Part shown: positions 8,007 through 44,430 of the stretch, in pieces
How positions within the stretch are numbered: position 1 is the stretch's first letter
Layout: every line of letters begins with the position of its first letter
DNA from: Deltaproteobacteria bacterium
GTDB taxonomy: Bacteria; Desulfobacterota; Deferrimicrobia; Deferrimicrobiales; Deferrimicrobiaceae
Reading direction: 5' to 3'
Assembly (NCBI GenBank): GCA_003105225.1
Contig: PQAK01000147.1
Coordinates: forward strand, 1 to 44,762
Length of the DNA stretch: 44,762 bases
Notes under the pieces: model-generated
Told to the model about the DNA's origin: nothing
Database searches by the model: none
The model's input: only the letters and a program-made list of their open reading frames with translations
Program-made: the position numbers and the translations under genes

Positions 8007-8429
8007 TCACGATCCCTGGCATCCGCCGGGGTGGCAGCATTCCGGCCCCGAATCGGGCAGGAGGGAAAAGTGCGCGGTGACGATCCGGGGGGAATCGCCG
8101 GCGACCGATACCCATAGAGTGGCCCGGATGAGGGCTTCCCCGATCCCCTCCTCCTCATCCATCTCCCGGACCTTCTGGATCGCGTGGATCACCACGAAAC
8201 CGTCGAACCGGTCGCACCGCAGCAGATCGAAGGACATCTCCGCGGTGGAATCGAACGCGGCCTCCAGGACCGCCCCGTACGTCTCCCCGTCGAAGAGGGA
8301 TCCCGTATAATCCTCGAAGATCCCGAAGCGGGGATCTTCCAGCGCGAAAAATGCGCGCAGCCCCTCCGGGTCCCGAGCGTTATACGCATCGGCATATTGT
8401 GACAGGAACGCCTGCGGGTCGAATTCCAT
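8007..8429 (-). CDS. NTF2/SnoaL-like fold protein of unknown function with a Cys-rich tail
   Basis: 140 aa. FLSQYADAYNARDPEGLRAFF resembles the start of a SnoaL/DUF4440-type domain. C-terminal PECCHPGGC. Confidence 0.5.
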   Translation of the reverse strand: MEFDPQAFLSQYADAYNARDPEGLRAFFALEDPRFGIFEDYTGSLFDGETYGAVLEAAFDSTAEMSFDLLRCDRFDGFVVIHAIQKVREMDEEEGIGEALIRATLWVSVAGDSPRIVTAHFSLLPDSGPECCHPGGCQGS

Positions 8430-8467
8430 GGGGAGGCATTATCCCATGTTTCCGGGCCACGCACCAC

Positions 8468-8649
8468 TAGCCCGCATTTCTCACCAAGCTTCTGCTGCGG
8501 CGGCGGATACGGGCATGTCTACTGCGTTGCGCTCGGTCGGGCTCCTCGACGTAGTGTCAACTACGCCTGCGGCGCCCTCGGTCGCGACGCCTTGTATCCA
8601 TACCCGTCTCCACCGCCTCGCGACGAACCCTGGTGAGAATTGCGGGCTA
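8468..8649. repeat. Foldback element A: a 182-nt near-symmetric imperfect hairpin with a core shared with the element at 40751-40921
   Basis: Outer stem TAGCCCGCATTTCTCACCA / TGGTGAGAATTGCGGGCTA pairs at 18 of 19 positions. Inner stems GGCGGCGGATACGGG / CCCGTCTCCACCGCC and GCGTTGCG / CGCGACGC. Apex CGTAGT-GTCA-ACTACG, centred at 8558. Confidence 0.6.
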
Positions 8650-8722
8650 AGGGATCGCCGATCGGAGGGTGGGTCCGGCGGCAACCGGAAGGAACACGCG
8701 GGAGACGTTCTGGTATAGTGGA

Positions 8723-10483
8723 ATGTCGATGGAAAACAGCCCCCTGACCGGCTGGCACGGAACGCTCCTTCATGTGGATCTCGCAGCGGGGACGAGCCGC
8801 GTCGAGCCCATTCCCCGCGATCTCCTGCTGGGCTACCTCGGAGGCAGAGGCCTGGGGGTGCGCCTTCTTCGCGGGGCGCACACCCTCGATCCCTTCCATG
8901 CCGACATGCCCCTGATCTTCGCCGTCGGTCCGCTGTGCGGGACGCCCGCCCCCACCGCGGCACGGCTGAACGTGGTGTCCCGCTCCCCCCTGACCGGAAC
9001 CGTATATGACTGCTCCGCCGGAGGCCGGTTCGCCCACCGCCTCAAGGCGGCAGGATTCGATGCGCTGCGCATCGTCGGACGCAGCCCCCGTCCCGCGGCG
9101 ATCTCCGTTACGCCGGAAGGGGGCGAAATCCTTCCTGCCGGCTCCCTTTGGGGGAAATCCGTCGGCGAGACGGTCCGGGCGCTCGAAGGACGGGGAAGCG
9201 TCGCGGCGATCGGGCCGGCCGGTGAGAACGGCGTCCTGTTCGCGAGCATCCTGATGGGCGAGGGGAACGCGGTGGGCCGCGGCGGGCTCGGCGCGGTGAT
9301 GGGCGGAAAGAACCTGAAGGCGATCGCGGTGAACGGAAGCCGGTCAACCGGCATCGCGGACCGCGCACGCTTCGAACGCGCCCGGCAGGACGTCATGCGG
9401 CTGTTCCGCGCCTCCCCCGTCATCTTCGGCGAACTGGGAATCAGCGAGTACGGGACGCCCGCGCTGGTCGACCTGATGCGCCAGCGGAGGATGGCCCCCA
9501 CCGAAAACTTCCGGAAGACGGTCTTCGAGGGATCGGGGAGCTATTCCGGCCCCTCCATCCGCAAGGCGTACGGCTCGAAGAAGGACGGCTGCCATGGCTG
9601 CCCCATCCAGTGCAAGAAAAGCGACCGGGAGGGGGCGCATCTTCCCGAGTACGAGACCGTCTCCCACTTCGGCGCGTTGAACGGCATCGACGACCTGGGC
9701 TCCATCGTCCGGTCGAACCGCCTGTGCAACGAGCTCGGGATGGACACGATATCGGCCGCGGCCACCCTCGCGGCGTGGGGGGAAGGAAGAGGCCGTTTCC
9801 CGGCGGCGGACGAGGTGGAGGGGCTCCTTGCCGACATGGCCTTCCTCCGGGGGGAGGGCGGCCTGCTGGCCCAGGGATCGCGCCGGGTGGCGCAGGCGCT
9901 GGGGAAACCGGGGCTGTCCATGAGCGTAAAGTCCCTCGAGCTTCCCGCCTACGACCCCCGCGGCGCCTACGGGATGGCGCTGGCCTACTGCACGAGCAAC
10001 CGGGGCGGATGCCACCTCCGGGCCTACCCCATCTCCCACGAGATCCTGCGCAAGCCTGTTGCGACCGACCGCTTCTCCTTTTCGGGAAAGGCGCGCATCA
10101 TCAAGATCGCCGAGGACACCAACGCCGCTGTGGATTCGCTGGTCGCCTGCAAGTTCTCCTTCTTCGGCGCGACCCTGGAGGAATACGCCGAGATGCTCGC
10201 CGCCGTCACCGGGGAGGAGTTCGGCCCCCAGTCCCTGAAGGAAATCGGCGAGCGCATCTGCCTCACGGAGCGGTTCTACAACTGCGCCAACGGGTTCGAT
10301 GCGAAGGACGACCGTCTGCCCGAGCGCTTTTTCCGCGAGCCCGGGTCCAGCGGCGAGGGGATCGAGATCCCTCCCATCGACGAGAAGCGGTTCGACGAGG
10401 AGCTTCGGAAGTATTACCGGATCCGCGGGCTGACTCCCGAGGGGACCTTTTCCGACCCCGGGTACCTGTCGAGGCTCCCGTGA
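8723..10483 (+). CDS. Aldehyde:ferredoxin oxidoreductase family (tungstopterin enzyme)
   Basis: N-terminal GWHGTLLHVDL...LGGRGLGVRLL. GGKNLKAIAV. DGCHGCPIQCKK cluster motif. 586 aa, typical AOR length. The start at 8723 versus 8729 is ambiguous. Confidence 0.9.
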   Translation: MSMENSPLTGWHGTLLHVDLAAGTSRVEPIPRDLLLGYLGGRGLGVRLLRGAHTLDPFHADMPLIFAVGPLCGTPAPTAARLNVVSRSPLTGTVYDCSAGGRFAHRLKAAGFDALRIVGRSPRPAAISVTPEGGEILPAGSLWGKSVGETVRALEGRGSVAAIGPAGENGVLFASILMGEGNAVGRGGLGAVMGGKNLKAIAVNGSRSTGIADRARFERARQDVMRLFRASPVIFGELGISEYGTPALVDLMRQRRMAPTENFRKTVFEGSGSYSGPSIRKAYGSKKDGCHGCPIQCKKSDREGAHLPEYETVSHFGALNGIDDLGSIVRSNRLCNELGMDTISAAATLAAWGEGRGRFPAADEVEGLLADMAFLRGEGGLLAQGSRRVAQALGKPGLSMSVKSLELPAYDPRGAYGMALAYCTSNRGGCHLRAYPISHEILRKPVATDRFSFSGKARIIKIAEDTNAAVDSLVACKFSFFGATLEEYAEMLAAVTGEEFGPQSLKEIGERICLTERFYNCANGFDAKDDRLPERFFREPGSSGEGIEIPPIDEKRFDEELRKYYRIRGLTPEGTFSDPGYLSRLP

Positions 10484-14797: not shown

Positions 14798-14810
14798 CCG
14801 CGGACCTCAA

Positions 14811-14850
14811 AAAGGGGCTACGGCCTGAACCGCAGCCCCTTTGACTTTCC
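14811..14850 (+). terminator. Hairpin terminator, copy 1 of the AAAGGGGCTACGGCC repeat family
   Basis: AAAGGGGCTACGGCCTGAACCGCAGCCCCTTTGACTTTCC. Stem GGGGCTACGG / CCGCAGCCCC followed by a T-rich tail. It sits between convergent genes. Confidence 0.6.
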
Positions 14851-17144: not shown

Positions 17145-17222
17145 ATCGGAAATATCGCAGTGCGGACGCGCGAAGGGGTCGCTTTCAGCATACGCCAATT
17201 CCGCATGGCTACGCCGAATGAC

Positions 17223-17268
17223 AAAGGGGCTACGGCCTAAACCGTAACCCCTTGATTTTACTGGTCGG
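17223..17268 (+). repeat. Copy 2 of the terminator repeat; a 46-nt block duplicated at 17934-17979
   Basis: AAAGGGGCTACGGCCTAAACCGTAACCCCTTGATTTTACTGGTCGG versus AAAGGGGCTACGGCCTGTGCCGTAACCCCTTGATTTTGCTGGTGGG: 41 of 46 identical, and 3 of the differences fall in the hairpin loop. Confidence 0.65.
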
Positions 17269-17308
17269 TCTTGGAGGGGAAGCGGGGTTTCCCGCTTCGG
17301 CCATGGGA

Positions 17309-17864: not shown

Positions 17865-17933
17865 CGGTCCCTACGACGAAAGCTTGCAGGAAACGATTTA
17901 TCGAATGCGTTCCCCAAGATCCAGCCGAAAGAA

Positions 17934-17972
17934 AAAGGGGCTACGGCCTGTGCCGTAACCCCTTGATTTTGC
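17934..17972 (-). terminator. Bidirectional hairpin terminator of the tRNA operon, copy 3 of the repeat
   Basis: On the minus strand, AAGGGGTTACGGCACAGGCCGTAGCCCCTTTTTCTTTC follows immediately after the tRNA-Lys CCA end. Confidence 0.65.
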
Positions 17973-18049
17973 TGGTGGGCCATGAAGGATTCGAACCTTC
18001 AACCTCCTGATTAAGAGTCAGCTGCTCTGCCGGGTTGAGCTAATGGCCC
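17973..18049 (-). tRNA. tRNA-Lys (anticodon CUU), CCA encoded
   Basis: GGGCCAT-TA-GCTC-AACCCGGCA-GAGC-A-GCTGA-CTCTTAA-TCAGG-AGGTT-GAAGG-TTCGAAT-CCTTC-ATGGCCC-A-CCA (77 nt). Confidence 0.9.
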
Positions 18050-18925: not shown

Positions 18926-19170
18926 GCGACAGGCGCCTTCCGTAGGGGGCGTATACCGCAGCAGCAGGCGCATTTCCTTTGCCCGCCTTCTTCCTCGCGG
19001 GAGACTTCCTCGCAGCTACGCTCGCGACCTGCGACCGCTCGCTGCAGGTTCCGCTCGACGCAATCTTTGCCTCGCTCCACATGCCGCTGCGATGAAGCTC
19101 CCGCTGCGTCATCCGGCGCGGACAGGGAACGCGAGCTGTCGGAATGCGCCTCAAACGGAAGGCGCAGCCG
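18926..19170. other. GC-rich multi-stem structured spacer (element B) between convergent genes; possible ncRNA or degenerate repeat
   Basis: Three nested pairings: GGCGCCTTCCGT(18932-43) / ACGGAAGGCGC(19155-65); GGCGCAT(T)TCC(18967-77) / GGAATGCGCC(19141-50); CAGCT..CGCG(19013-26) / CGCGAGCTG(19130-38). These enclose local hairpins at 19027-19049 and 19091-19113. There is no plausible ORF. Confidence 0.35.
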
Positions 19171-36981: not shown

Positions 36982-37485
36982 ATGGAGCCGAAAATGAAGA
37001 GCATGGGATTTGCTCGCACTGGAATTCTCCTATCGGTCATGTTCCTCATAAGCCTTATCGTCCCGAACTCCCCGCTCGCGGAGGAAAAACCGAAACCGTC
37101 TTTATACCAGCGGCTCGGAGGGGTGTACAACATCGCACCCGTTGTCGACGAGTTCCTGGAAGTCCTTTATGTCGACGACGTCCTGAACGCAAACCCAAGG
37201 ATCAAGGAAGCCAGGGATCGGGTCCCCAAAGCCTATCTCAAATACCACGTCACTTCCATGGTTTGCCAGGCCTCCGGCGGACCGGAGAAATACACCGGGC
37301 GGGGGATGAAGGAATCGCACCAGCATCTCAACATTACGGAAAATGAATGGCAGGCAATGCGGGTCGATTTCAAGAAGGTCCTGGACAAGTTCAAGGTCCC
37401 CGAGCAGGAGCAGAAAGAACTCATCGCGATCGTAGAGAGCACGAAAAAGGACATCGTTCTTGTTTCAGCAGAAATGAAGAAATAG
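36982..37485 (+). CDS. Group-I truncated hemoglobin-like protein with an N-terminal signal peptide
   Basis: SLYQRLGGVYNIAPVVDEFLEVL, YLKYHVTSMVCQASGGPEKYTGRGMKESHQHLNITENEW: trHb (2-on-2 globin) hallmarks, including the proximal His context. Preceded by MKSMGFARTGILLSVMFLISLIVPNSPLA. Confidence 0.7.
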   Translation: MEPKMKSMGFARTGILLSVMFLISLIVPNSPLAEEKPKPSLYQRLGGVYNIAPVVDEFLEVLYVDDVLNANPRIKEARDRVPKAYLKYHVTSMVCQASGGPEKYTGRGMKESHQHLNITENEWQAMRVDFKKVLDKFKVPEQEQKELIAIVESTKKDIVLVSAEMKK

Positions 37486-37489
37486 CCGC

Positions 37490-37514
37490 CTAAGCAACGG
37501 GTCCGGGGTTCGAG
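37490..37514 (+). repeat. Direct repeat of the tRNA-Arg(UCU) anticodon-loop-to-T-loop segment (att-like)
   Basis: CTAAGCAACGGGTCCGGGGTTCGAG versus 30757-30781 CTAAGCAGCGGGTCCGGGGTTCGAG (24 of 25), same orientation, 6.7 kb downstream of the tRNA. Confidence 0.65.
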
Positions 37515-37538
37515 GAAGTGCGCTACCCAACGGCCACG

Positions 37539-38666
37539 TCAAGGTGCGGGGGGAGAGGTCTTGAGCGCCTCGATAACCTCCTCCAACTCTTCCCATGATG
37601 TTTGCCGCCCCAAACTGAACCGGACGGCTCCCATTCCCTCCTCGGGGGGGACCCCCATGGCCGCCAGGACGGGAGAAAGCGTGACCGAGCCGGCATGGCA
37701 GGCCGATCCGGTCGATGCGGCAACCCCTGGAAGCCTTGCGAGAACCTCCGCGCCGACCCGGCCGACGAAGTTGACGTTAAGGGTATTGGGGAGACGTTCC
37801 GCCGGGTGACCGTTGAGCGTCACCCGGCCGCCGTAAATAGCCTTGAGCCCCTCCCAGAAACGGTCGCGCAGGATTTTGACCTGCGTCATCCCTATCCACT
37901 TCCGCGCCGTCTCGCATGCCGCGCCGAGCGCCACGGCCAAGAGGACATTCTCCGTTCCGGCGCGCCGGCCAGCTTCATGTCCCGCCCCGTGGACGAACGG
38001 CTCGATCCTTGTCCCTTCCCGGATGTAGAGCGCCCCGATCCCCTTCGGCGCGTAAACCTTGTGCCCGGCGACCGAGAGGAGGTCCACGCCCAGTTCCTCG
38101 ACGTCGGCGGAGAGTTTCCCCACCGTCTGGGCCGCGTCCGTATGGAACGGAATCCCCGCCTCACGTGCAATGGCAGCGATCTCCGGAATCGGCTCGATCG
38201 TTCCGATCTCGTTATTGGCATGCATCACGGTGATGAGTATCGTCCTCGAGGTTATCGCTTTTCGGACACCTTCCGGGTCCACCCTTCCGGACCGGTCGAC
38301 CGGCAATACGGTTACCCTCGCCCCCAGCGTCTCCAGGAACCGGCATGGGTTCATCGTGGCGGGATGCTCCACCGCGGTAGTGATGATGTGGTCTCCACGA
38401 TCCCGGTTCGCGAAGAAGACGCCTTTGATCGCATGGTTGTTCGACTCGCTGCCTCCGCTGGTGAAGACGATCTCGGTCGGGTCGCACCCCAACAGCCCTG
38501 CCACCCGCCCCCGCGCCCGCTCCACGGCGTCTTTCGCTCCCGCGCCAGCCCAATGGAGACTCGACGGATTTCCGTAATGATCGGTCAGGAACGGCCGCAT
38601 CGCCTCGACGGCCTCGGGGCAGATCGGCGTGCTCGCGTTGAAATCGAGGTAAATGCGTCGACTCAC
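37539..38666 (-). CDS. Class V aminotransferase: NifS/IscS-like cysteine desulfurase (possible selenocysteine lyase)
   Basis: GTG start chosen at VSRRIYLDFNASTP. GNPSSLHWAG, TSGGSESNN, SVAGHKVYAPKGIGALY (PLP Lys), STGSACHAGS (active-site Cys loop). Confidence 0.85.
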   Translation of the reverse strand: MSRRIYLDFNASTPICPEAVEAMRPFLTDHYGNPSSLHWAGAGAKDAVERARGRVAGLLGCDPTEIVFTSGGSESNNHAIKGVFFANRDRGDHIITTAVEHPATMNPCRFLETLGARVTVLPVDRSGRVDPEGVRKAITSRTILITVMHANNEIGTIEPIPEIAAIAREAGIPFHTDAAQTVGKLSADVEELGVDLLSVAGHKVYAPKGIGALYIREGTRIEPFVHGAGHEAGRRAGTENVLLAVALGAACETARKWIGMTQVKILRDRFWEGLKAIYGGRVTLNGHPAERLPNTLNVNFVGRVGAEVLARLPGVAASTGSACHAGSVTLSPVLAAMGVPPEEGMGAVRFSLGRQTSWEELEEVIEALKTSPPAP

Positions 38667-38733
38667 GGCATTGCCCCTTTCTTCCCCGGCGTTTCGGTCT
38701 TCCGCAAAGCGGCGACGAGGCCGGTAACGGGCG

Positions 38734-39579
38734 TCAACGTCCCCGCTGATGCGATGGACCTTTTCTTCGACGGATATTTTCACCTGCGTGTTCCAATGCC
38801 GCCTCGAGAGCCGCGGAACACACGGAAAGGGAATCCCTTATCCCCGTGTCGCCGCCTTTTTCGAAGTCCCCCGGCCGCGTCGCCATCGAGTTCGTGATGT
38901 GCGCCAGGCAAGCCACCGGCTTGTCGAGCGCTTTCCCGAGTGCCAGCAGGGCGGCAGCCTCCATCTCCACGGAAACGATCCCCTCCATTCGCCGCGAGGC
39001 GATCAGGCGTTCCGTCTCCCGGAAGGGGGCGTCGGTGGTCCATGACGCGCCCACCAGGACGGGAACGGACATGCCGCCCAGTCGTTTCCGGACTGTGGAG
39101 ACAAGCAAGGGATCGGCCTCGGCATATCGACCGGGCGGAAGGTAATGATGGCTCGTTCCCTCGTCGCGCAAGGCTTTCTCTATGAGGAGAAAGATCGGCG
39201 GAGTGATGTGATCCGCCACAAGCCCCGCGGAAGAGACGCTGACGATCGCCTTGCAGCCGGAGGCAAACAATTCCTCGGCCACGAGAACCGCATAGGACGC
39301 CCCGATGGTGCCGCCGATCACGCCGAATTCACGCCGCTCGTCCCTCCAACGGAACAAACGCGTGTGAAAGCAGGGCCATGCCGGATCCTCCGCAGCTTTT
39401 CCCGCGGCGGCAAGGTGCTCGACCAGTTCGCCGTCGAAGTCCAGGAGGCAGCCGGCCGGTACGAGCCCCCTGGGCAGCCCCTTTTTGATCCTGGCAGCCG
39501 CCAGGAGGTTGGCCGGCGTGAAGACGGCCGTTTCCGCCGTTTCGTGCTCCAGGAGGGGAATCCGGGGGGCTTCAGCCAC
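38734..39579 (-). CDS. PNP/UDP-1 family nucleoside phosphorylase / nucleosidase-like protein
   Basis: GVIGGTIGASYAVLVAEEL, SVSSAGLV, VSVEMEAAALLALG: phosphorylase-superfamily core motifs. Confidence 0.65.
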   Translation of the reverse strand: MAEAPRIPLLEHETAETAVFTPANLLAAARIKKGLPRGLVPAGCLLDFDGELVEHLAAAGKAAEDPAWPCFHTRLFRWRDERREFGVIGGTIGASYAVLVAEELFASGCKAIVSVSSAGLVADHITPPIFLLIEKALRDEGTSHHYLPPGRYAEADPLLVSTVRKRLGGMSVPVLVGASWTTDAPFRETERLIASRRMEGIVSVEMEAAALLALGKALDKPVACLAHITNSMATRPGDFEKGGDTGIRDSLSVCSAALEAALEHAGENIRRRKGPSHQRGR

Positions 39580-39928
39580 GGGACGCCACCTTCTCCCTCT
39601 CGGCCTTTCCCTTTTCCCGGTCGATCTGCTCCTTCGTCTTCCGGAGGACCGGATGGTCTGCCGACAGGAGGGCCAGCACCCCTTCGACCAGCTTCGGCCG
39701 GCTGATGTAGTAGCATCTCAGCGCCCCCTCCTGGGCGAAGTCCACGAGCCGTGCGTTCCGAAGGACCGTCAGGTGCTGGGAAATGTTCACCTGGGTAACG
39801 GGCAGGATCTCCTCCATGTCCGTCACGCACCGGGTCCCCTTGCGCAGCTCGCCGAGGATCTGGAGGCGCGTCGGGTGCGCAAAGGCTTTAAGGAGTTCCG
39901 CCCATTCGTACGCGCGGTCGCCGTCCAT
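39572..39928 (-). CDS. ArsR/SmtB-family metalloregulator
   Basis: LLKAFAHPTRLQILGELRKGTRCVTDMEEILPVTQVNISQHLTVLRNARLV. 8-nt overlap with the downstream gene. Confidence 0.85.
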   Translation of the reverse strand: MDGDRAYEWAELLKAFAHPTRLQILGELRKGTRCVTDMEEILPVTQVNISQHLTVLRNARLVDFAQEGALRCYYISRPKLVEGVLALLSADHPVLRKTKEQIDREKGKAEREKVASRG

Positions 39929-40181
39929 ATTCCCTCCCGTTTATCATTTAGAACATTCTAATATTAGATAGGAAGGATTTCCAACCAGGGCGGCATCGGC
40001 ATGCCCGTTCGAAACCGTTCCCGGGCGGGAAGAGTCGGGCCGGCGATGGATGTCGGCAACATATCACGAGCGACCTTATCTATTAAGCTGGGGAGACCGA
40101 GGCGGAGCGGCGTGAGGCCGATGCCTTTAAAAACGGCGATCCCATTCGGTTCGCGCCTGGTTCCCATTCCGTCGCCCCATC

Positions 40182-40214
40182 TTGACATTTCCGGCAATTT
40201 CTGCCCAATATAAA
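40182..40214 (+). promoter_or_regulatory. Candidate sigma70 promoter (perfect -35, ambiguous -10)
   Basis: TTGACA at 40182-40187. A-T-rich CCAATATAAA at 40205-40214 offers -10 options at 18-21 nt spacing, none ideal. Confidence 0.3.
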
Positions 40215-40247
40215 CTGGCAAAATGTTTAGATATCCCAGTAGTTTAC

Positions 40248-40292
40248 GCTCCTTCTAAGGAGCGAGCCGGTTCGAATCTCTCCAGGCGCGCC
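40248..40292 (+). pseudogene. tRNA-Arg(UCU)-like 3' half, a second att-like remnant lacking the 5' acceptor and D arm
   Basis: GCTCC-TTCTAAG-GAGC...GGTTCGAATCTCTCCAGGCGCGCC aligns with 30749-30797 of the intact tRNA. The anticodon stem shows a compensatory G:C to C:G swap. The T-stem is disrupted and no 5' half is present. Confidence 0.5.
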
Positions 40293-40323
40293 GGAAACTC
40301 CAATGATCGATCGAGGGAAAGAC

Positions 40324-40722
40324 ATGCAGAATCGAATCGTTGTTCGATACCAGGACGGGCGGCTCCTGAAAGGAATCACGACCGATTTCATCGCGGGCAA
40401 GGAGGCGTTCCACGTCACGGAGACCGCATCCCCGTCGGCCAAACCCGTCGAGGTCCAGGTTTCGAAGCTCAAGGCGGTCTTCTTTGTCAAGGACCTGTTG
40501 GGCAACGCCCATCACAAGGAACGGTTGGACTTCGATCCCTCCAAGCCGGCCCCGGGACGGAAGATCTTTGTCCAATTCAAGGACGGAGAGCGGATCGTGG
40601 GATTGACGCAAGGCTACAAGCCGGGCCGCGACGGATTCTTCCTGGTGCCCGCCGATCCCCTCTCGAACAACGAGCGGATCTATGTCGTCACCTCCTCCAC
40701 GCAGGAAATCAAGTTCCTGTAA
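40324..40722 (+). CDS. Hypothetical protein with an internal duplication of a beta-rich module
   Basis: IVVRYQDGRLLKGITTDFIAGKEAFHV versus IFVQFKDGERIVGLTQGYKPGRDGFFLVP. Alternative start at 40303. Confidence 0.55.
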   Translation: MQNRIVVRYQDGRLLKGITTDFIAGKEAFHVTETASPSAKPVEVQVSKLKAVFFVKDLLGNAHHKERLDFDPSKPAPGRKIFVQFKDGERIVGLTQGYKPGRDGFFLVPADPLSNNERIYVVTSSTQEIKFL

Positions 40723-40750
40723 TTCCCGGATCCGCCGTGCGGCGAACCGG

Positions 40751-40921
40751 CTTAGTGTTCCAGTTCATAAATACGGTGACGCACCGAGAGCGTCGATGCG
40801 CCGCATCCGGCAAGGCGCGCGACTGAGGCGTACTGTGAAGTACGGCGCAAGGAGCGCAACGCAGCCGGGGCGGATGCAGCGGCGCTCGAATGCAACCGTA
40901 TTTATGAATTGGAGCACTTAG
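40751..40921. repeat. Foldback element C: a 171-nt symmetric imperfect hairpin whose core is homologous to element A in the opposite orientation
   Basis: Outer arms CTTAGTGTTCCAGTTCATAAATACGGT / ACCGTATTTATGAATTGGAGCACTTAG (27 positions: 24 WC, 2 G.U on the plus strand, 1 mismatch). Apex CGTACT-GTGA-AGTACG, centred at 40836. Confidence 0.6.
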
Positions 40922-40977
40922 GCGACGGCTTGCGCCTCCACGTCGCGAAACCTGAAACGAATCCCCACGAGAGGTCG

Positions 40978-41313
40978 ATGATGGAACATCTGGAGATCCT
41001 GCGGCTGCTGGAATACTCCCCCGCGAGACAAACGAGGAAAAAGCTGATCGCGTCGGAAAACCTGGTTGCCGAACTGGTTTGTTACGAACCGGGGCAGGCG
41101 ACCGCTCCCCACCTTCACCCCCGCCAGGACGAGATCTTCCACGTCATCGAAGGTGGGGGCACCATCCTGGTGGACGAGGCGGAGGTACCGGTGGCGGCCG
41201 GCAGCGTCGTTTTCGTGCCGGCGGGATCGCGCCACGGCATCCGGGCCGACGCCGGAATCCGGCTGGCGCTGATGTTCATTAAAGGACCGGGGGCTGCTGC
41301 CCATCCCCGCTGA
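40978..41313 (+). CDS. Cupin-domain protein
   Basis: PHLHPRQDEIFHVIEGGGTILVDEAEVPVAAGSVVFVPAGSRHGIRA matches cupin motifs 1 and 2. Start MMEHLEIL after GAGAGG. Confidence 0.75.
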   Translation: MMEHLEILRLLEYSPARQTRKKLIASENLVAELVCYEPGQATAPHLHPRQDEIFHVIEGGGTILVDEAEVPVAAGSVVFVPAGSRHGIRADAGIRLALMFIKGPGAAAHPR

Positions 41314-41394
41314 ACGGATTTCTCCTTCCGGTTCCCCGGTCTCCATCCGCCATCCCGATGGTGCAACCGCGCGCTCGCGCTCCCGGGAGCGTGC

Positions 41395-42393
41395 CTATCG
41401 TCCCGCGGGATAGGGAGCTTGCCCGCTCTGCACCTGCCGCCGCTGCTGCCGGTACAGCTCCAGAGGGCGGCTCCCCGGAAATCTTGCGTGCGTCTCCTCG
41501 ATCACCGCATCCGCCTCCGCGAACCGGTGCTGCCGGTCGAGCAGCTCCGCCAGGAACACCAGCCCGCTCTCCTGTGCCTCGGGAGCGTCATTCCGGGAAA
41601 GACATGCCCGCTGCGCGGCTTCCGCATCCTTGAACCGTTCCCGCGCGGCCAGGGACCGGGCTTCCCCGCACCCCGAAGGAGGCAGGCGCACCCCTGCGCC
41701 TTCCCTCGCCTTCGCAGCCTCCGACTCTCTTTTCATCGATGCCGCCGTCTCCGGCGCCGCCGGGACCGCAGCCTTCCCGCCGGACTCCCCGCTCGTCATC
41801 GCCCCGGGAGCCGGAATTTTCCTTGACGCCTCCTGCGGCGGCGCGGGCGCCTCCCGGAGCGCACCCTGCGGCCGGGCGCCGTCGGCAACCGCCTTTTCCT
41901 CCGCGGCACGGGGAACCGCTGCCGGCGCGGCGTTTTCCTTCCTGGAGCGCGCTGCGGGGGCCGGGACCGCCGGGGATGGGGGAACACGGGGCGCCTCCAT
42001 CGCGGGAGGCGCAACGCTCGGCGCCGGGACCCCCGGCCCCCGGCCGATCGTGCGGAAGACCACGACGAGCAACACGGCGGCGGCCGCCGCCGGAACCAGG
42101 TAGCGGAGCTGGTGGCGCACCCATCCCCGTTTCGGGCGGGGCGACACGCCCGCGAGCGGACGACCCCCCTCCCCCGCGATACGTTCCTCCACCCGGGAAT
42201 TGAATCGATCCCAGTATTCCGGCCCCGGATCCGGGACCTCGGCGGCGGCATCGATCCGGGCGATCGATTCGAGGAGCGCGGCGCAATCCGGGCAGCCTCG
42301 CAGATGCGCTTCCACGCGCGCGCGGCCGGCAGCGGACAGTTCCCCGTCGTGATACGCGGAAATCATCTCCTGCGCCTTGCGGCAATCCATCAC
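41395..42393 (-). CDS. Anti-sigma factor (zf-HC2 N-terminal domain, single TM, Ala/Pro-rich linker, C-terminal TPR-like region)
   Basis: MMDCRKAQEMISAYHDGELSAAGRARVEAHLRGCPDCAALLES (HxxxCxxC). TM segment YLVPAAAAAVLLVVVF. Confidence 0.75.
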   Translation of the reverse strand: MMDCRKAQEMISAYHDGELSAAGRARVEAHLRGCPDCAALLESIARIDAAAEVPDPGPEYWDRFNSRVEERIAGEGGRPLAGVSPRPKRGWVRHQLRYLVPAAAAAVLLVVVFRTIGRGPGVPAPSVAPPAMEAPRVPPSPAVPAPAARSRKENAAPAAVPRAAEEKAVADGARPQGALREAPAPPQEASRKIPAPGAMTSGESGGKAAVPAAPETAASMKRESEAAKAREGAGVRLPPSGCGEARSLAARERFKDAEAAQRACLSRNDAPEAQESGLVFLAELLDRQHRFAEADAVIEETHARFPGSRPLELYRQQRRQVQSGQAPYPAGR

Positions 42394-42402
42394 CTTCTCC
42401 CC

Positions 42403-42963
42403 CTACGCCCGCGCATTCAACGCGGCGAGCAGCGATCGCCTTGCGCGGAAGAGGCGGGACATCACCGTCCCCGCCGGGATTCCCACGGTCTCCGCGATCT
42501 CGGCGTACGACAGCCCCTCCACCGCCCGCAGCACCATGACGGTCCGAAGTTCCGTGGGAAGGTCCGCCATCGCCGCGGCCACGCGCCGTTTCTCCTCGCC
42601 TCCCGAAGCCGCATCCTCGGGGCCGTCCGCCGGATCGGCCGGATCGGGCAGCTCCTCCCCCGAGACCTTCGGCACGCCCGCCTCCCCGTCCCGCCGCACC
42701 GACCGCCCGCAATTCCAGGCGATCTTCCGGAGCCAGGGGCCGAACGGGCGTTCCGGATCGTAGGACGGGAGGGCGCGGTACACCCGCAGGAACGTCTCCT
42801 GCGCCGCGTCGTCGGCGTCCGCGGGATTCCCGGTCGCCGACCAGCAGAGCCGGTAGACCGCCCGCCGATGGCGCGTCACCAGGGTCTCGAACGCGCGCCG
42901 GTCCCCTCCCGCCGCCAAGGCCGCCAGTTTTTCGTCCCGCTCTTCCCCGAGGTCGGATTCCAT
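42403..42963 (-). CDS. ECF (group IV) RNA polymerase sigma-70 factor
   Basis: Region 2 FETLVTRHRRAVYRLCW...AQETFLRVYRAL. Region 4 LRAVEGLSYAEIAETVGIPAGTVMSRLFRARRSL. Confidence 0.9.
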   Translation of the reverse strand: MESDLGEERDEKLAALAAGGDRRAFETLVTRHRRAVYRLCWSATGNPADADDAAQETFLRVYRALPSYDPERPFGPWLRKIAWNCGRSVRRDGEAGVPKVSGEELPDPADPADGPEDAASGGEEKRRVAAAMADLPTELRTVMVLRAVEGLSYAEIAETVGIPAGTVMSRLFRARRSLLAALNARA

Positions 42964-43083
42964 TTCCTACCTTCTATACCACAGGAACCCCGGAATTATT
43001 CCCGCCGGGGAATAAAAGGGCGCCCGGGCGGGTATTGCAGGTAACGATTCAACGATTCGACCTGAACGAAAAGGAGAAACGCC

Positions 43084-44430
43084 ATGCAGACGAACCCGAT
43101 GCGAATGTTTCTCGGCAGGCTGGGCGTCGCCCTGGTGACGCTCGCGTTGGGAGCTTCATGCTCCTCGGCGGCGCCGCTCCGGCTGGAAGTCCGGTCGGAA
43201 AACCGGATGGTCCTCATCCCCGGCCCCGGCGACGGCGCCATCCAGGTGCAGGTGATCGCCCCCGACGTTCCGTTTCCGGCAGGGCGGCCGATGGTGAACC
43301 TGGCGCTCGTCATCGACCGCAGCGGTTCGATGGGAGAGGCGCGCAAGCTGGAGGTCGTCAAGACCGCCGCCCATCAGCTGATCGATTTGATGGGGGGAAA
43401 CGACATCCTCTCCGTCGTGGCGTACGACCACCGGGTCAGCGTGCTGTTCCCGGCGCATCGCGTGGACGGCAACCGGGAGGCGCTGCATCGGCTCGTCGAA
43501 AGCCTCTACCCCGGCGGGCAGACCTTTCTCTCCGGCGGACTGGAAGAGGGATTCCGACAGGCGCGATCGGCCCGGCGGAACGGTTATATCAACCGGGTCC
43601 TCCTGCTCTCCGACGGGCTGGCGAACGTGGGGACCGTCAGCCGGGATGCCCTCCAGCGGAGGGCCGCGACGATGGCCGAATACGGGATCTCCCTTTCGAC
43701 GTTCGGCGTCGGGCTCCATTTCGACGAAGAGCTTCTCATGGCGGCCGCAAACGGCGGAGGGGGGAACTACCGCTACCTCGGCGATCCGGAGCGGATCGTG
43801 GCGGCGCTGTCGGCGGAGTTCCACCTGGCATCGCGGACGGCGGCAAGCGACGTGGAGATCATCATCCGGCTGCGGAGGGGGTGCCGATTCGGCTCCGTGG
43901 TGGGGCGCGAATGGCGGCGAGACGGCGATGCCTACGTGATCCGGCTGGGGGACCTTTCGGCGGGAGAACGCCGGACGTTGTTCGCAAACCTCAACGTGTC
44001 CGCGGACAAGCCGGGCCTCCGGGAGGTGGGGGAGGTGGCGCTCCGCTACCGCGACCCGGCATCCGGGAAGCCCGTCACCGGGGCATCGCAGGCCGTGTCC
44101 CTCGAACTGGTCCGCGACGAGGAGCGCTACCGGGAAGGATTCGACCGGTCGGTCCAGGAGAAGAAGGCGGTGGCGCAGTCCAACGCGATGGTGCAGGACG
44201 CCGCGCGGCTGGCCGACCAGGGGAAAAAGGAGGAGGCCCGCGAGATGCTGGGGAAGGCCGCCGCGGGGCTCGCCGCGGCGCCGCCGTCCCCCGCGGTCCG
44301 GGCGGAATTCGAGAAGACCAACGCATACCGGAACCGGCTGGATTCGATGACGGACATGGGCTCGGACGAGGCAAAGGACGCCCAGAAGGCGATCAAGTAC
44401 CGCTCCTACGAAATGCTGTACCGGCAATAA
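43084..44430 (+). CDS. von Willebrand factor type A domain lipoprotein
   Basis: Lipobox LALGASC. MIDAS DRSGSM...SDG in LALVIDRSGSMGE / RVLLLSDGLANVG. Beta-sandwich middle and helical C-terminus. Divergent from the ECF sigma operon. Confidence 0.85.
   Translation: MQTNPMRMFLGRLGVALVTLALGASCSSAAPLRLEVRSENRMVLIPGPGDGAIQVQVIAPDVPFPAGRPMVNLALVIDRSGSMGEARKLEVVKTAAHQLIDLMGGNDILSVVAYDHRVSVLFPAHRVDGNREALHRLVESLYPGGQTFLSGGLEEGFRQARSARRNGYINRVLLLSDGLANVGTVSRDALQRRAATMAEYGISLSTFGVGLHFDEELLMAAANGGGGNYRYLGDPERIVAALSAEFHLASRTAASDVEIIIRLRRGCRFGSVVGREWRRDGDAYVIRLGDLSAGERRTLFANLNVSADKPGLREVGEVALRYRDPASGKPVTGASQAVSLELVRDEERYREGFDRSVQEKKAVAQSNAMVQDAARLADQGKKEEAREMLGKAAAGLAAAPPSPAVRAEFEKTNAYRNRLDSMTDMGSDEAKDAQKAIKYRSYEMLYRQ

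Follow-up and report, generated by a model that had tools for sequence, protein, structure and literature searches.

Elements A and C in the window

The analyzed DNA, a stretch of 44,762 nucleotides (positions 1 to 44,762 of contig PQAK01000147.1, assembly GCA_003105225.1, Deferrimicrobiaceae) referred to below as the window, contains two intergenic foldback repeats, elements A and C. Element A, a full-length A-type repeat, occupies positions 8467..8650 (184 bp including the terminal CTAG-like tetramers), and element C, a full-length C-type repeat, occupies positions 40751..40921. The strand reading CAAGGCG...GCGCAACGCAG, named here the core-sense strand, is the minus strand in A and the plus strand in C. 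Genes for AFOR, a 140-aa open reading frame (ORF), a DUF6982 protein and a cupin are the neighbors of the two elements. A and C belong to a set of discrete, multicopy, cross-phylum, non-coding foldback units, whose presence at orthologous sites changes by gain or loss and whose pairing is kept by compensatory change.

The core module of A (8514..8602, minus strand) is composed of CAAGGCGTCGCGA, a variable middle stem, the apex hairpin and then GAGCGCAACGCAG. The core module of C (40806..40869, plus strand) is composed of CAAGGCGCGCGA, CTGA, the apex hairpin, GCAAG and GAGCGCAACGCAG, the middle stem being absent. The apex hairpin of A, CGTAGT-GTCA-ACTACG (8550..8565), has a 6-bp stem and a tetraloop and can be extended to GGCGTAGT/ACTACGTC on the sense strand; that of C is CGTACT-GTGA-AGTACG (40829..40844). 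Re-reading of the sequence gave the same coordinates and apex motifs of A and C as a preliminary description of the window. On the core-sense strand, the core reads CAAGGCG(T)CGCGA ... GGCGTAsT-loop-AsTACGyC ... GAGCGCAACGCAG. The 13-mer CTGCGTTGCGCTC, the only exact occurrences of which in the window are 8522-8534(+) and 40852-40864(-), and the string GTCGCG(A)CGCCTTG are common to both copies, as was first described. The 8-bp helix GCGTTGCG/CGCGACGC, also attributed to both, is exact in A, but its partner in C is one base shorter (CGCGCGC). In A, the 8-nt direct repeat CTCGGTCG (8532-8539 and 8577-8584, span 8532..8584, plus strand) brackets the middle stem and the apex. The terminal arm CTAGCCCGCATTTCTCACC (8467..8485, plus strand), inverted at 8632-8650, is conserved throughout the A-type subfamily, and the other terminal arm, GGTGAGAATTGCGGGCTAA (8632..8650, plus strand), was defined by comparison of A-type copies.

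The significance of folding was estimated as the z-score of the minimum free energy against dinucleotide shuffles. The values were -107.7 kcal/mol (z = -8.4) for A(+), -126.1 kcal/mol (z = -10.1) for A(-), -88.2 kcal/mol (z = -5.5) for C(-) and -111.5 kcal/mol (z = -11.2) for C(+), and in all four strand cases no shuffle matched the real fold. The stronger-folding strand is A(-)/C(+), i.e., the core-sense strand, which is opposite to the orientation used in the preliminary description.

A total of 131 loci, labeled with L-numbers, were collected. BLAST of the window against the loci placed the boundaries of A at 8467/8468 and 8649/8650 (about 28 unrelated loci, 74-91% identity), and the matches of C to L014, L061, L010 (twice), L083 and L032 were restricted to 40753-40921, in agreement with the limits given in the preliminary description; the flanks of A and C showed no similarity to other loci. 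The core covariance model R1 detected only A (70.5 bits, E = 5e-19) and C (53.4 bits, E = 8e-14) in the window, the next-best match having 13 bits.

Size, subfamilies and distribution of the family

An exact-pattern scan (GGCGTA-N8-TACG-N2-30-AGCGCAACGCA) of one genome per GTDB species revealed at least 119 loci carrying the core. Among the matches listed, the labels of the metagenome-assembled genomes (MAGs) represent at least six phyla and include Thermodesulfobacteriota (Syntrophales, Smithella), Acidobacteriota (Terriglobia), Gemmatimonadota, Nitrospirota (Thermodesulfovibrio), Myxococcota, Hydrogenedentota and Deferrimicrobiaceae. The motif CAAGGCG (CAAGGCG-CGC-R-A), which lies outside the search pattern, was found upstream in 112 of the approximately 117 listed matches and is at least 90% conserved. 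The core matches are not due to chance, because this motif recurs in them without having been searched for, and the core is a conserved module, as had been proposed.

Clustering of the listed matches by their arms showed the presence of four groups, namely, type I (54 copies, arms GACGGCTTCGTAAAAAG / CTTTTTACGAAGCCGTC), type II (22 copies, arms GGCTGTTCAAAAATG / CGTTTTTCAACAGCC), A-type (24 copies, arms like those of element A) and C-type (6 copies, arms like those of element C). Across the family, the unit is a non-coding imperfect palindrome of about 125-185 bp, and each subfamily is conserved over its full length, including arms and termini, in unrelated genomic contexts. The ends of A-type units have the form YTAG-CCCGCATTTCTCA ... 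TGAGAAATGCGGG-CTAR with the conserved terminal inverted repeats YTAGCCCGCATTTCTCA...TGAGAAATGCGGGCTAR, and those of C-type units the form CTAGTG ... CACT(T)AG. In these conserved terminal inverted repeats, as well as in being small, non-coding, multicopy and dispersed, the units correspond to miniature inverted-repeat transposable elements (MITEs). In type I and type II units, A5 and T5 tracts bracket the inner hairpin, resembling a bidirectional terminator.

The outer stems had been described as sharing no sequence, and the elements, accordingly, as the reverse of a MITE. The stems of A have no relation to those of C, but both are conserved within their own subfamily (74-91% identity). Since the stems differ only between subfamilies, within each of which the whole unit is conserved together with its termini, the comparison to a reversed MITE fits A versus C only and is not supported for the family.

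On 0.71 Mb of fetched loci, R1 gave 114 matches, about 12 of them beyond the seeds, which corresponds to roughly one copy per 60 kb. In the locus L054 (Acidobacteriota), at least five copies or fragments are present within 8 kb, interspersed with ordinary housekeeping genes, those of an aminotransferase, a 2-hydroxyacid dehydrogenase, an outer membrane protein and an LpxA-like protein. Degenerate, truncated and tandem copies are common, and internally deleted minis retaining only the termini were found at L054:2501-2573 (72 bp) and L037:2361-2396 (36 bp).

Many type I units have an extra half-arm, GAYNNNNTCGTAAAAAGTC, about 17 nt upstream (L079 5395-5435; also L013, L015, L018 and L020), an arrangement that recalls clusters of repetitive extragenic palindromes (REPs) of the kind known as bacterial interspersed mosaic elements. 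Extra small hairpins within the core or in place of one arm, found at L031 7355-7464, L095 4423-4531, L103 3593-3707 and in the left arms of L052/L110, are nested insertions of other short palindromes.

Neither the window nor A, C or one type I unit gave a relevant match in Rfam 15 at gathering or permissive thresholds, and nothing meaningful appeared at E<=10 for the three elements; this agrees with the earlier remark that the elements could not be assigned to a known non-coding RNA or riboswitch class. The plasmid database, searched in distant mode, contained no match to the elements. One weak, divergent match on a viral contig was rejected as not being a real member. Literature searches by core strings returned coincidental primer matches only, and keyword searches returned general papers on REPs, on their paired hairpin-forming arrangements (REPINs) and on MITEs, with no account of this family. 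Resemblances to Escherichia coli REP words, 4.5S RNA words, the k-turn, box C/D and group II domain V were dropped as non-collinear or failing inspection.

The trivial explanation, namely, that A and C are chance GC-rich palindromes or ordinary intrinsic terminators with a few short shared words, can draw on the GC-rich genome with its many inverted repeats and on the single terminator-like match overlapping the edge of C. This match is a weak minus-strand consensus, and no terminator site was found within A; an intrinsic terminator has a U tract behind a short GC hairpin, a feature not seen in A and C, while their type I and type II relatives carry the A5/T5 tracts. The fold z-scores (-5.5 to -11.2), the restriction of R1 matches in the window to A and C (E = 1e-13 to 1e-19) and more than 100 homologous copies elsewhere, with covariation, already refute this explanation, and almost no credence is left to it.

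Site occupancy in related genomes

Comparison with related genomes showed that both sites are polymorphic. In the assembly GCA_012026775.1 (L124), 99.8% identical to the window over 37324-43722, C is present. The same DUF6982 gene end was found in L127, the DUF6982 protein of which is 86% identical, and in L128/L129, and there C is absent. The empty site reads ccggc|aacggcttgcgcc, and the filled site in the window reads ccggc[TTAGTG...169 bp...CACTTA]ggcgacggcttgcgcc; relative to the empty sites, the insertion corresponds to 40752-40920 (169 bp), with GGC on each side. In L127, the cupin gene directly follows the empty site, which makes a clean filled/empty pair.

The locus L121, 93% identical to the window over 13 kb and with the same order of RND-efflux, DUF3313, ORF140 and AFOR genes, contains A at the orthologous site (9780-9930), lacking 45 nt (the middle stem and the apex) between the CTCGGTCG repeats. 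In L123, L130 and L131 (AFOR 84-88% identical), A is absent from the syntenic ORF140-AFOR spacer, the length of which is 100 bp, 138 bp and 43 bp, respectively. Since relatives lack them at the same sites, A and C are mobile and not fixed loci. The preliminary description had left a fixed RNA gene as an alternative to mobile DNA, and the absence of C from L127/L128 and of A from L123, L130 and L131 decides for mobility. Such insertion polymorphism between related genomes, found at both sites, is typical for MITEs.

A short form of the A-type unit (137 bp, without the apex) was also found at an unrelated locus, L123:1151-1287; either the deletion between the CTCGGTCG repeats recurs, or the short form itself spreads. 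The Logan contigs L125 and L126, independent short-read assemblies of near-identical strains, break inside C at window positions 40810 and 40821, as is to be expected of a multicopy or hairpin repeat.

Conventional MITEs have to be considered. The A-type and C-type units would then be deletion derivatives of two different insertion sequences (ISs) with DDE transposases, their terminal inverted repeats would be recognized, a short TA-centered duplication (TA, TWA or YTAR, as for IS630/Tc1 or IS5/PIF) would be generated, and the center would be a passenger module, e.g., an RNA hairpin affecting termination, processing or stability of neighboring transcripts, exchanged or retained among families for the benefit of the element or the host. 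Consistent with this are the size, the non-coding nature, the inverted repeat over the full length, the dispersed multicopy distribution and the presence/absence polymorphism, as well as CTAG, TTAA or CTTAG at the termini; of 18 A-type copies, 8 carry the same palindromic tetramer (CTAG/CTAG or TTAA/TTAA) at either end. The minis that keep only the termini, the DDE_Tnp_1 family in 2 of 150 neighboring ORFs and the bidirectional-terminator look of type I and type II units point in the same direction.

The junctions themselves argue otherwise. At the empty C sites (L127, L128), neither TA nor CTAG is present, so the CTAG-like ends belong to the element, and the TA/CTAG target duplication that these ends suggested is weakened. 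No consistent flanking duplication was found in other C-type copies, and type I units have no TA ends. No autonomous IS with A-type or C-type termini was seen in the 131 collected loci (8-kb flanks), there was no match in the plasmid database, and no promoter or terminator consensus was found inside A or C, apart from the weak match at the edge of C. An origin as ordinary MITEs, one of the two main rival readings, is regarded as rather unlikely.

Covariation of the stems

Covariation in the A-type subfamily was counted for 23 full-length copies on the consensus structure. Standard pairs are formed by 95.3% of 1348 cells, compared to 79.0% in column shuffles and 33-42% with slid partners. Double (compensatory) changes were found in 39 of 59 pairs and in 195 cells; the covariation score was 0.473 versus 0.178 in shuffles, and none of 500 shuffles reached the observed values. 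The apex pair in alignment columns 115-123 also covaries (CG 15, GC 4, UA 4).

For the core of types I and II, 76 copies were counted on an author-specified structure; 92.9% of cells are paired, all eight pairs of the middle stem covary, and the score was reached by 0 of 500 shuffles. Columns 33-61 contain A-U in 42 copies, G-C in 20 and G-U in 5, and columns 34-60 contain U-A in 39, U-G in 21 and C-G in 13. The arms of C-type copies differ between genomes and are still complementary. Between the window and L124, there are 13 differences over 6399 positions, two of which are facing stem positions in C: a G.A mismatch in the window (40777/40896) and an A-T pair in L124 (3447/3566). This points to compensation in very recent time or, alternatively, to conversion involving the two arms or different copies.

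The invariant core contains the helix GCGCGC / GCG[CAA]CGC with a 3-nt bulge and a flanking CAAG/AG loop; in type I, conserved positions are consistent with tandem G.A pairs, and conserved internal loops are present in A-type (CGUAGCGAG / GCAGUAG) and C-type (CCGAGAGCG / CGCUCGAAUGC) units. The fold is under selection, as the preliminary description had supposed, the covariation being strong both in the A-type stems and in the core of the other subfamilies.

Strand and orientation bias

In the outer stems, i.e., the region left free by the search pattern, transition mismatches on the core-sense strand are of the G.T type in 206 cases and of the A.C type in 109. For A-type pairs predicted independently from both strands, the numbers are 36 and 13. 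Counts over whole arms including the core showed the reverse asymmetry, since every copy contributed its conserved asymmetric core positions anew, and were discarded in favor of the two counts given here; the G.U counts of the apex are unusable, since the search pattern fixed its 5' arm. Of 111 cores, 101 fold more strongly as the core-sense strand than as its complement.

Orientation relative to neighboring genes was determined with a minimum ORF length of 200 codons. Both neighbors run against the core-sense strand in 35 loci and with it in 11, and the gene located 3' of this strand is in the opposite orientation in 69 cases and in the same orientation in 31. The mean GC skew of the 3-kb flanks in sense orientation is -0.020 (p = 0.0008). 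Where a locus contains several copies, these point the same way in 11 cases and opposite ways in 2.

These results bear on two of the explanations. Transposase binding could account for conserved termini of about 20-30 bp, but not for compensatory arms of about 90 nt, the wobble asymmetry or the orientation bias, which weighs further against conventional MITEs. The second explanation is a host-functional structured RNA family, i.e., small RNA genes or cis-acting elements (protein-binding hairpins, processing or stability signals) with the core as the functional site, multiplied by duplication and horizontal transfer and selected by the host, mobility being incidental. The covariation, including the A-U to G-C and U-A to U.G switches in the middle stem, the conserved tandem G.A positions and the 3-nt bulge, the better folding of the core-sense strand in most cores, the cross-phylum conservation and the orientation bias relative to neighboring genes are all compatible with it. 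However, the loci are not fixed, close relatives lacking the element at the same site; in L121, with its 93% identity, the apex is missing from the orthologous copy; and degenerate, truncated and tandem copies, a repeat-like density and the lack of an associated gene class are at odds with RNA genes, as are the missing Rfam match and the lack of a promoter consensus in A or C. Moreover, the flanking genes mostly run against the stronger-folding strand, so that transcripts reading through from them would, in most cases, contain its complement. The filled/empty sites, the apex loss and the degenerate and tandem copies disfavor this explanation, and it is considered improbable.

Neighboring genes

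The 150 ORFs flanking the copies match 204 different Pfam families, including Radical_SAM (5), RecR (3) and DDE_Tnp_1 (2), with no meaningful recurrence of any of them. A recurrent partner gene (transposase, reverse transcriptase or integrase) was found neither among these ORFs nor in the repeat-dense locus L054, and no integrase or reverse transcriptase family occurs among the 25 Pfam families in the partial list for them. Around A and C, the called genes include no reverse transcriptase or integrase, and in the gene tables, about 9 kb around A and 3 kb around C are free of transposase genes, which bears out the earlier statement that no such gene lies nearby. The 140-aa ORF adjoining A (window 8007-8429, minus strand) has no Pfam match, and its homologue in L123 has a weak SnoaL_2 match; its position next to the AFOR gene is conserved in relatives with and without A.

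Other repeats in the window

A third foldback (probably the "copy B" of the preliminary description), located at 18933-19165 (about 233 nt) between a gene of a ferritin-like protein and a response-regulator gene, has a minimum free energy of -123 kcal/mol (z = -4.3). It has neither the core nor relatives among the collected loci and was excluded from the family; it may represent another repeat family. The window also contains a repeat that forms a short GC hairpin, AAAGGGGCTACGGCC...CCGTAACCCCTT with TTGATTTT behind it, in three copies with 85-88% identity at 14809-14841, 17221-17253 and 17932-17964 (extended 17213-17277 / 17924-17988), two of which flank the tRNA-Lys/Arg/His cluster. It looks like a terminator and may be a small repeat family.

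Interpretation

The explanation favored here, tentatively and with somewhat less than even confidence, is that A and C represent two subfamilies of a single widespread, non-autonomous mobile foldback repeat family, MITE/REPIN-like and dependent on its hairpin. The unit enters new intergenic sites as DNA, as the filled and empty orthologous sites show, and its propagation or retention would depend on the hairpin formed by one strand. The dependence on the hairpin is suggested because the stems evolve by compensatory change over their whole length, G.U/G.T pairs are in excess on one strand and the orientation is biased. The near-invariant center, CAAGGCGCGCRA ... GGCGTAC-loop-GTACGYC ... RAGCGCAACGCAG, with its conserved 3-nt bulge and purine-rich internal loops, is the sole part common to subfamilies with otherwise unrelated arms. 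This center may be the module recognized in folded single-stranded form by a trans-acting factor, and the arms would need only to pair.

The leading candidate for the factor would be a structure- and strand-specific HUH/Y1 enzyme (RAYT/IS200-like), and the folded species could be single-stranded DNA or RNA. An enzyme of this type acting in trans would fit stems that covary over their whole length, wobble pairs that favor one strand, biased orientation, and the fact that neither a regular target duplication nor a linked transposase was seen. The closest known parallel is the action of HUH/Y1 enzymes on hairpins of REP/REPIN and IS200/IS605 elements (PMC3116915, PMC3733652).

A number of observations weigh against the hairpin-dependent family. 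No gene for a mobilizing enzyme was found beside any copy, no Y1/HUH family is present among the top Pfam families listed for the 150 flanking ORFs, and DDE_Tnp_1 is present there twice. Elements of the IS200/IS605 type use the lagging-strand template, and the stronger-folding strand of the family, judged by GC skew, tends to be on the leading-strand template. The apex hairpin is not indispensable at a resident locus, because it was lost in L121 and L123 while the remainder was conserved. A DDE transposase that duplicates its target, as 4-bp YTAR or as 2-bp TA, could account for the A-type end tetramers, and the C copy of the window has GGC on both sides. Lying within 32 kb of each other, A and C are oriented oppositely. 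The taxonomy labels of MAGs may contain binning errors. The shuffle controls overstate significance, because copies of a subfamily are related; the slid-partner control keeps this relatedness, and its result is equally clear. Finally, gene conversion within the element, maintaining the palindrome, could mimic selection for pairing.

Taken with these reservations, the single-stranded fold probably matters for propagation or retention, and the shared center, rather than the arms, is likely to be the functional or recognition module. The A/C family is an unusual and perhaps new type of miniature mobile element and not a fixed RNA gene. A more specific proposal, possible but doubtful, is that the center is a mobile hairpin-tip module with a conserved bulge and G.A-rich loops for a putative protein recognizing single-stranded DNA or RNA; it would define a new hairpin-tip-directed non-autonomous class in which any complementary arms can be mobilized or, alternatively, would be a mobile RNA regulatory module spread over at least six phyla.

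If the center is the recognition module, the usual logic of miniature elements, with conserved ends and a free middle, is inverted. An uncharacterized structure-specific mobilization or RNA-binding system would then be indicated for anaerobic soil and sediment bacteria of several phyla. The repeats fill many intergenic spacers, break short-read assemblies and create insertion polymorphisms beside metabolic genes, which is relevant for assembling MAGs, for strain typing and for annotation. They could be annotated with the covariance model R1, and the filled/empty site pairs make their mobility directly testable.

Comparison with known systems

Bacterial MITEs folding into long hairpins include the Correia elements of Neisseria, RUP, ERIC, Nezha and Chunjie. 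The A/C family is similar to them in that its units are non-coding, 100-200 bp long and largely made up of an inverted repeat, in tens to hundreds of dispersed intergenic copies with presence/absence polymorphism and internal deletions, and in sharp ends with TA-containing tetramers. It differs in that the center, not the termini, is most conserved and is the same across phyla under unrelated arms, as well as in the compensatory arms, the biased orientation, the lack of consistent target duplication and the lack of an autonomous IS partner among the loci collected.

The attC sites of integrons have conserved outer R''/R' boxes (RYYYAAC/GTTRRRY) and a variable center and are located in cassette arrays beside intI. 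The A/C units are also imperfect palindromes, which would act as folded single strands, with structure prevailing over sequence and one strand preferred; in contrast, they are solitary, have CTAG-like ends instead of R''/R' boxes and have no integrase among the called genes around A and C. Retron msr/msd loci are characterized by an adjacent reverse transcriptase and a1/a2 repeats, and no reverse transcriptase was found among the neighbors of A and C. The preliminary description had likewise assigned the elements to neither class.

Multicopy palindromic intergenic sequences were described in Geobacter genomes (PMC2996986). They resemble the present family in their anaerobic "deltaproteobacterial" hosts, the large number of repeat families and the non-random occupancy of spacers. 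However, the core strings are absent from the supplementary alignments of that work, and no core shared across families or phyla is described there.

REPs and REPINs are mobilized by RAYT (Y1/HUH), and terminal inverted repeat (TIR) sequences are linked to TIRYT genes in Acidobacteria (PMC3116915, PMC3733652). Similar to them, the A/C units are high-copy intergenic palindromes with the hairpin as the presumed key feature, kept by compensatory change, and have no consistent target duplication; some genomes reach REP-like density (L054), and GTAG words are present in the A-type internal loops. Dependence on a trans-acting single gene per genome instead of a linked transposase is counted as a further likeness, although no mobilizer gene was found beside the copies. 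No RAYT/TIRYT gene is linked to any copy, and the TIRYT-associated motif GGGGWSAS is absent. REPs are 20-40 nt long with a terminal GTAG or CGTC tag, and a REPIN is composed of two inverted REPs around a variable spacer, with conserved ends and a variable center, whereas the unit of the A/C family lacks this arrangement and is one hairpin of 125-185 nt with a conserved tip and subfamily-specific arms.

The A/C family thus departs from the described MITE/REPIN-like kinds in a deeply conserved structured center, common to subfamilies with unrelated covarying arms. This inverted pattern of conservation points to a putative recognition system.

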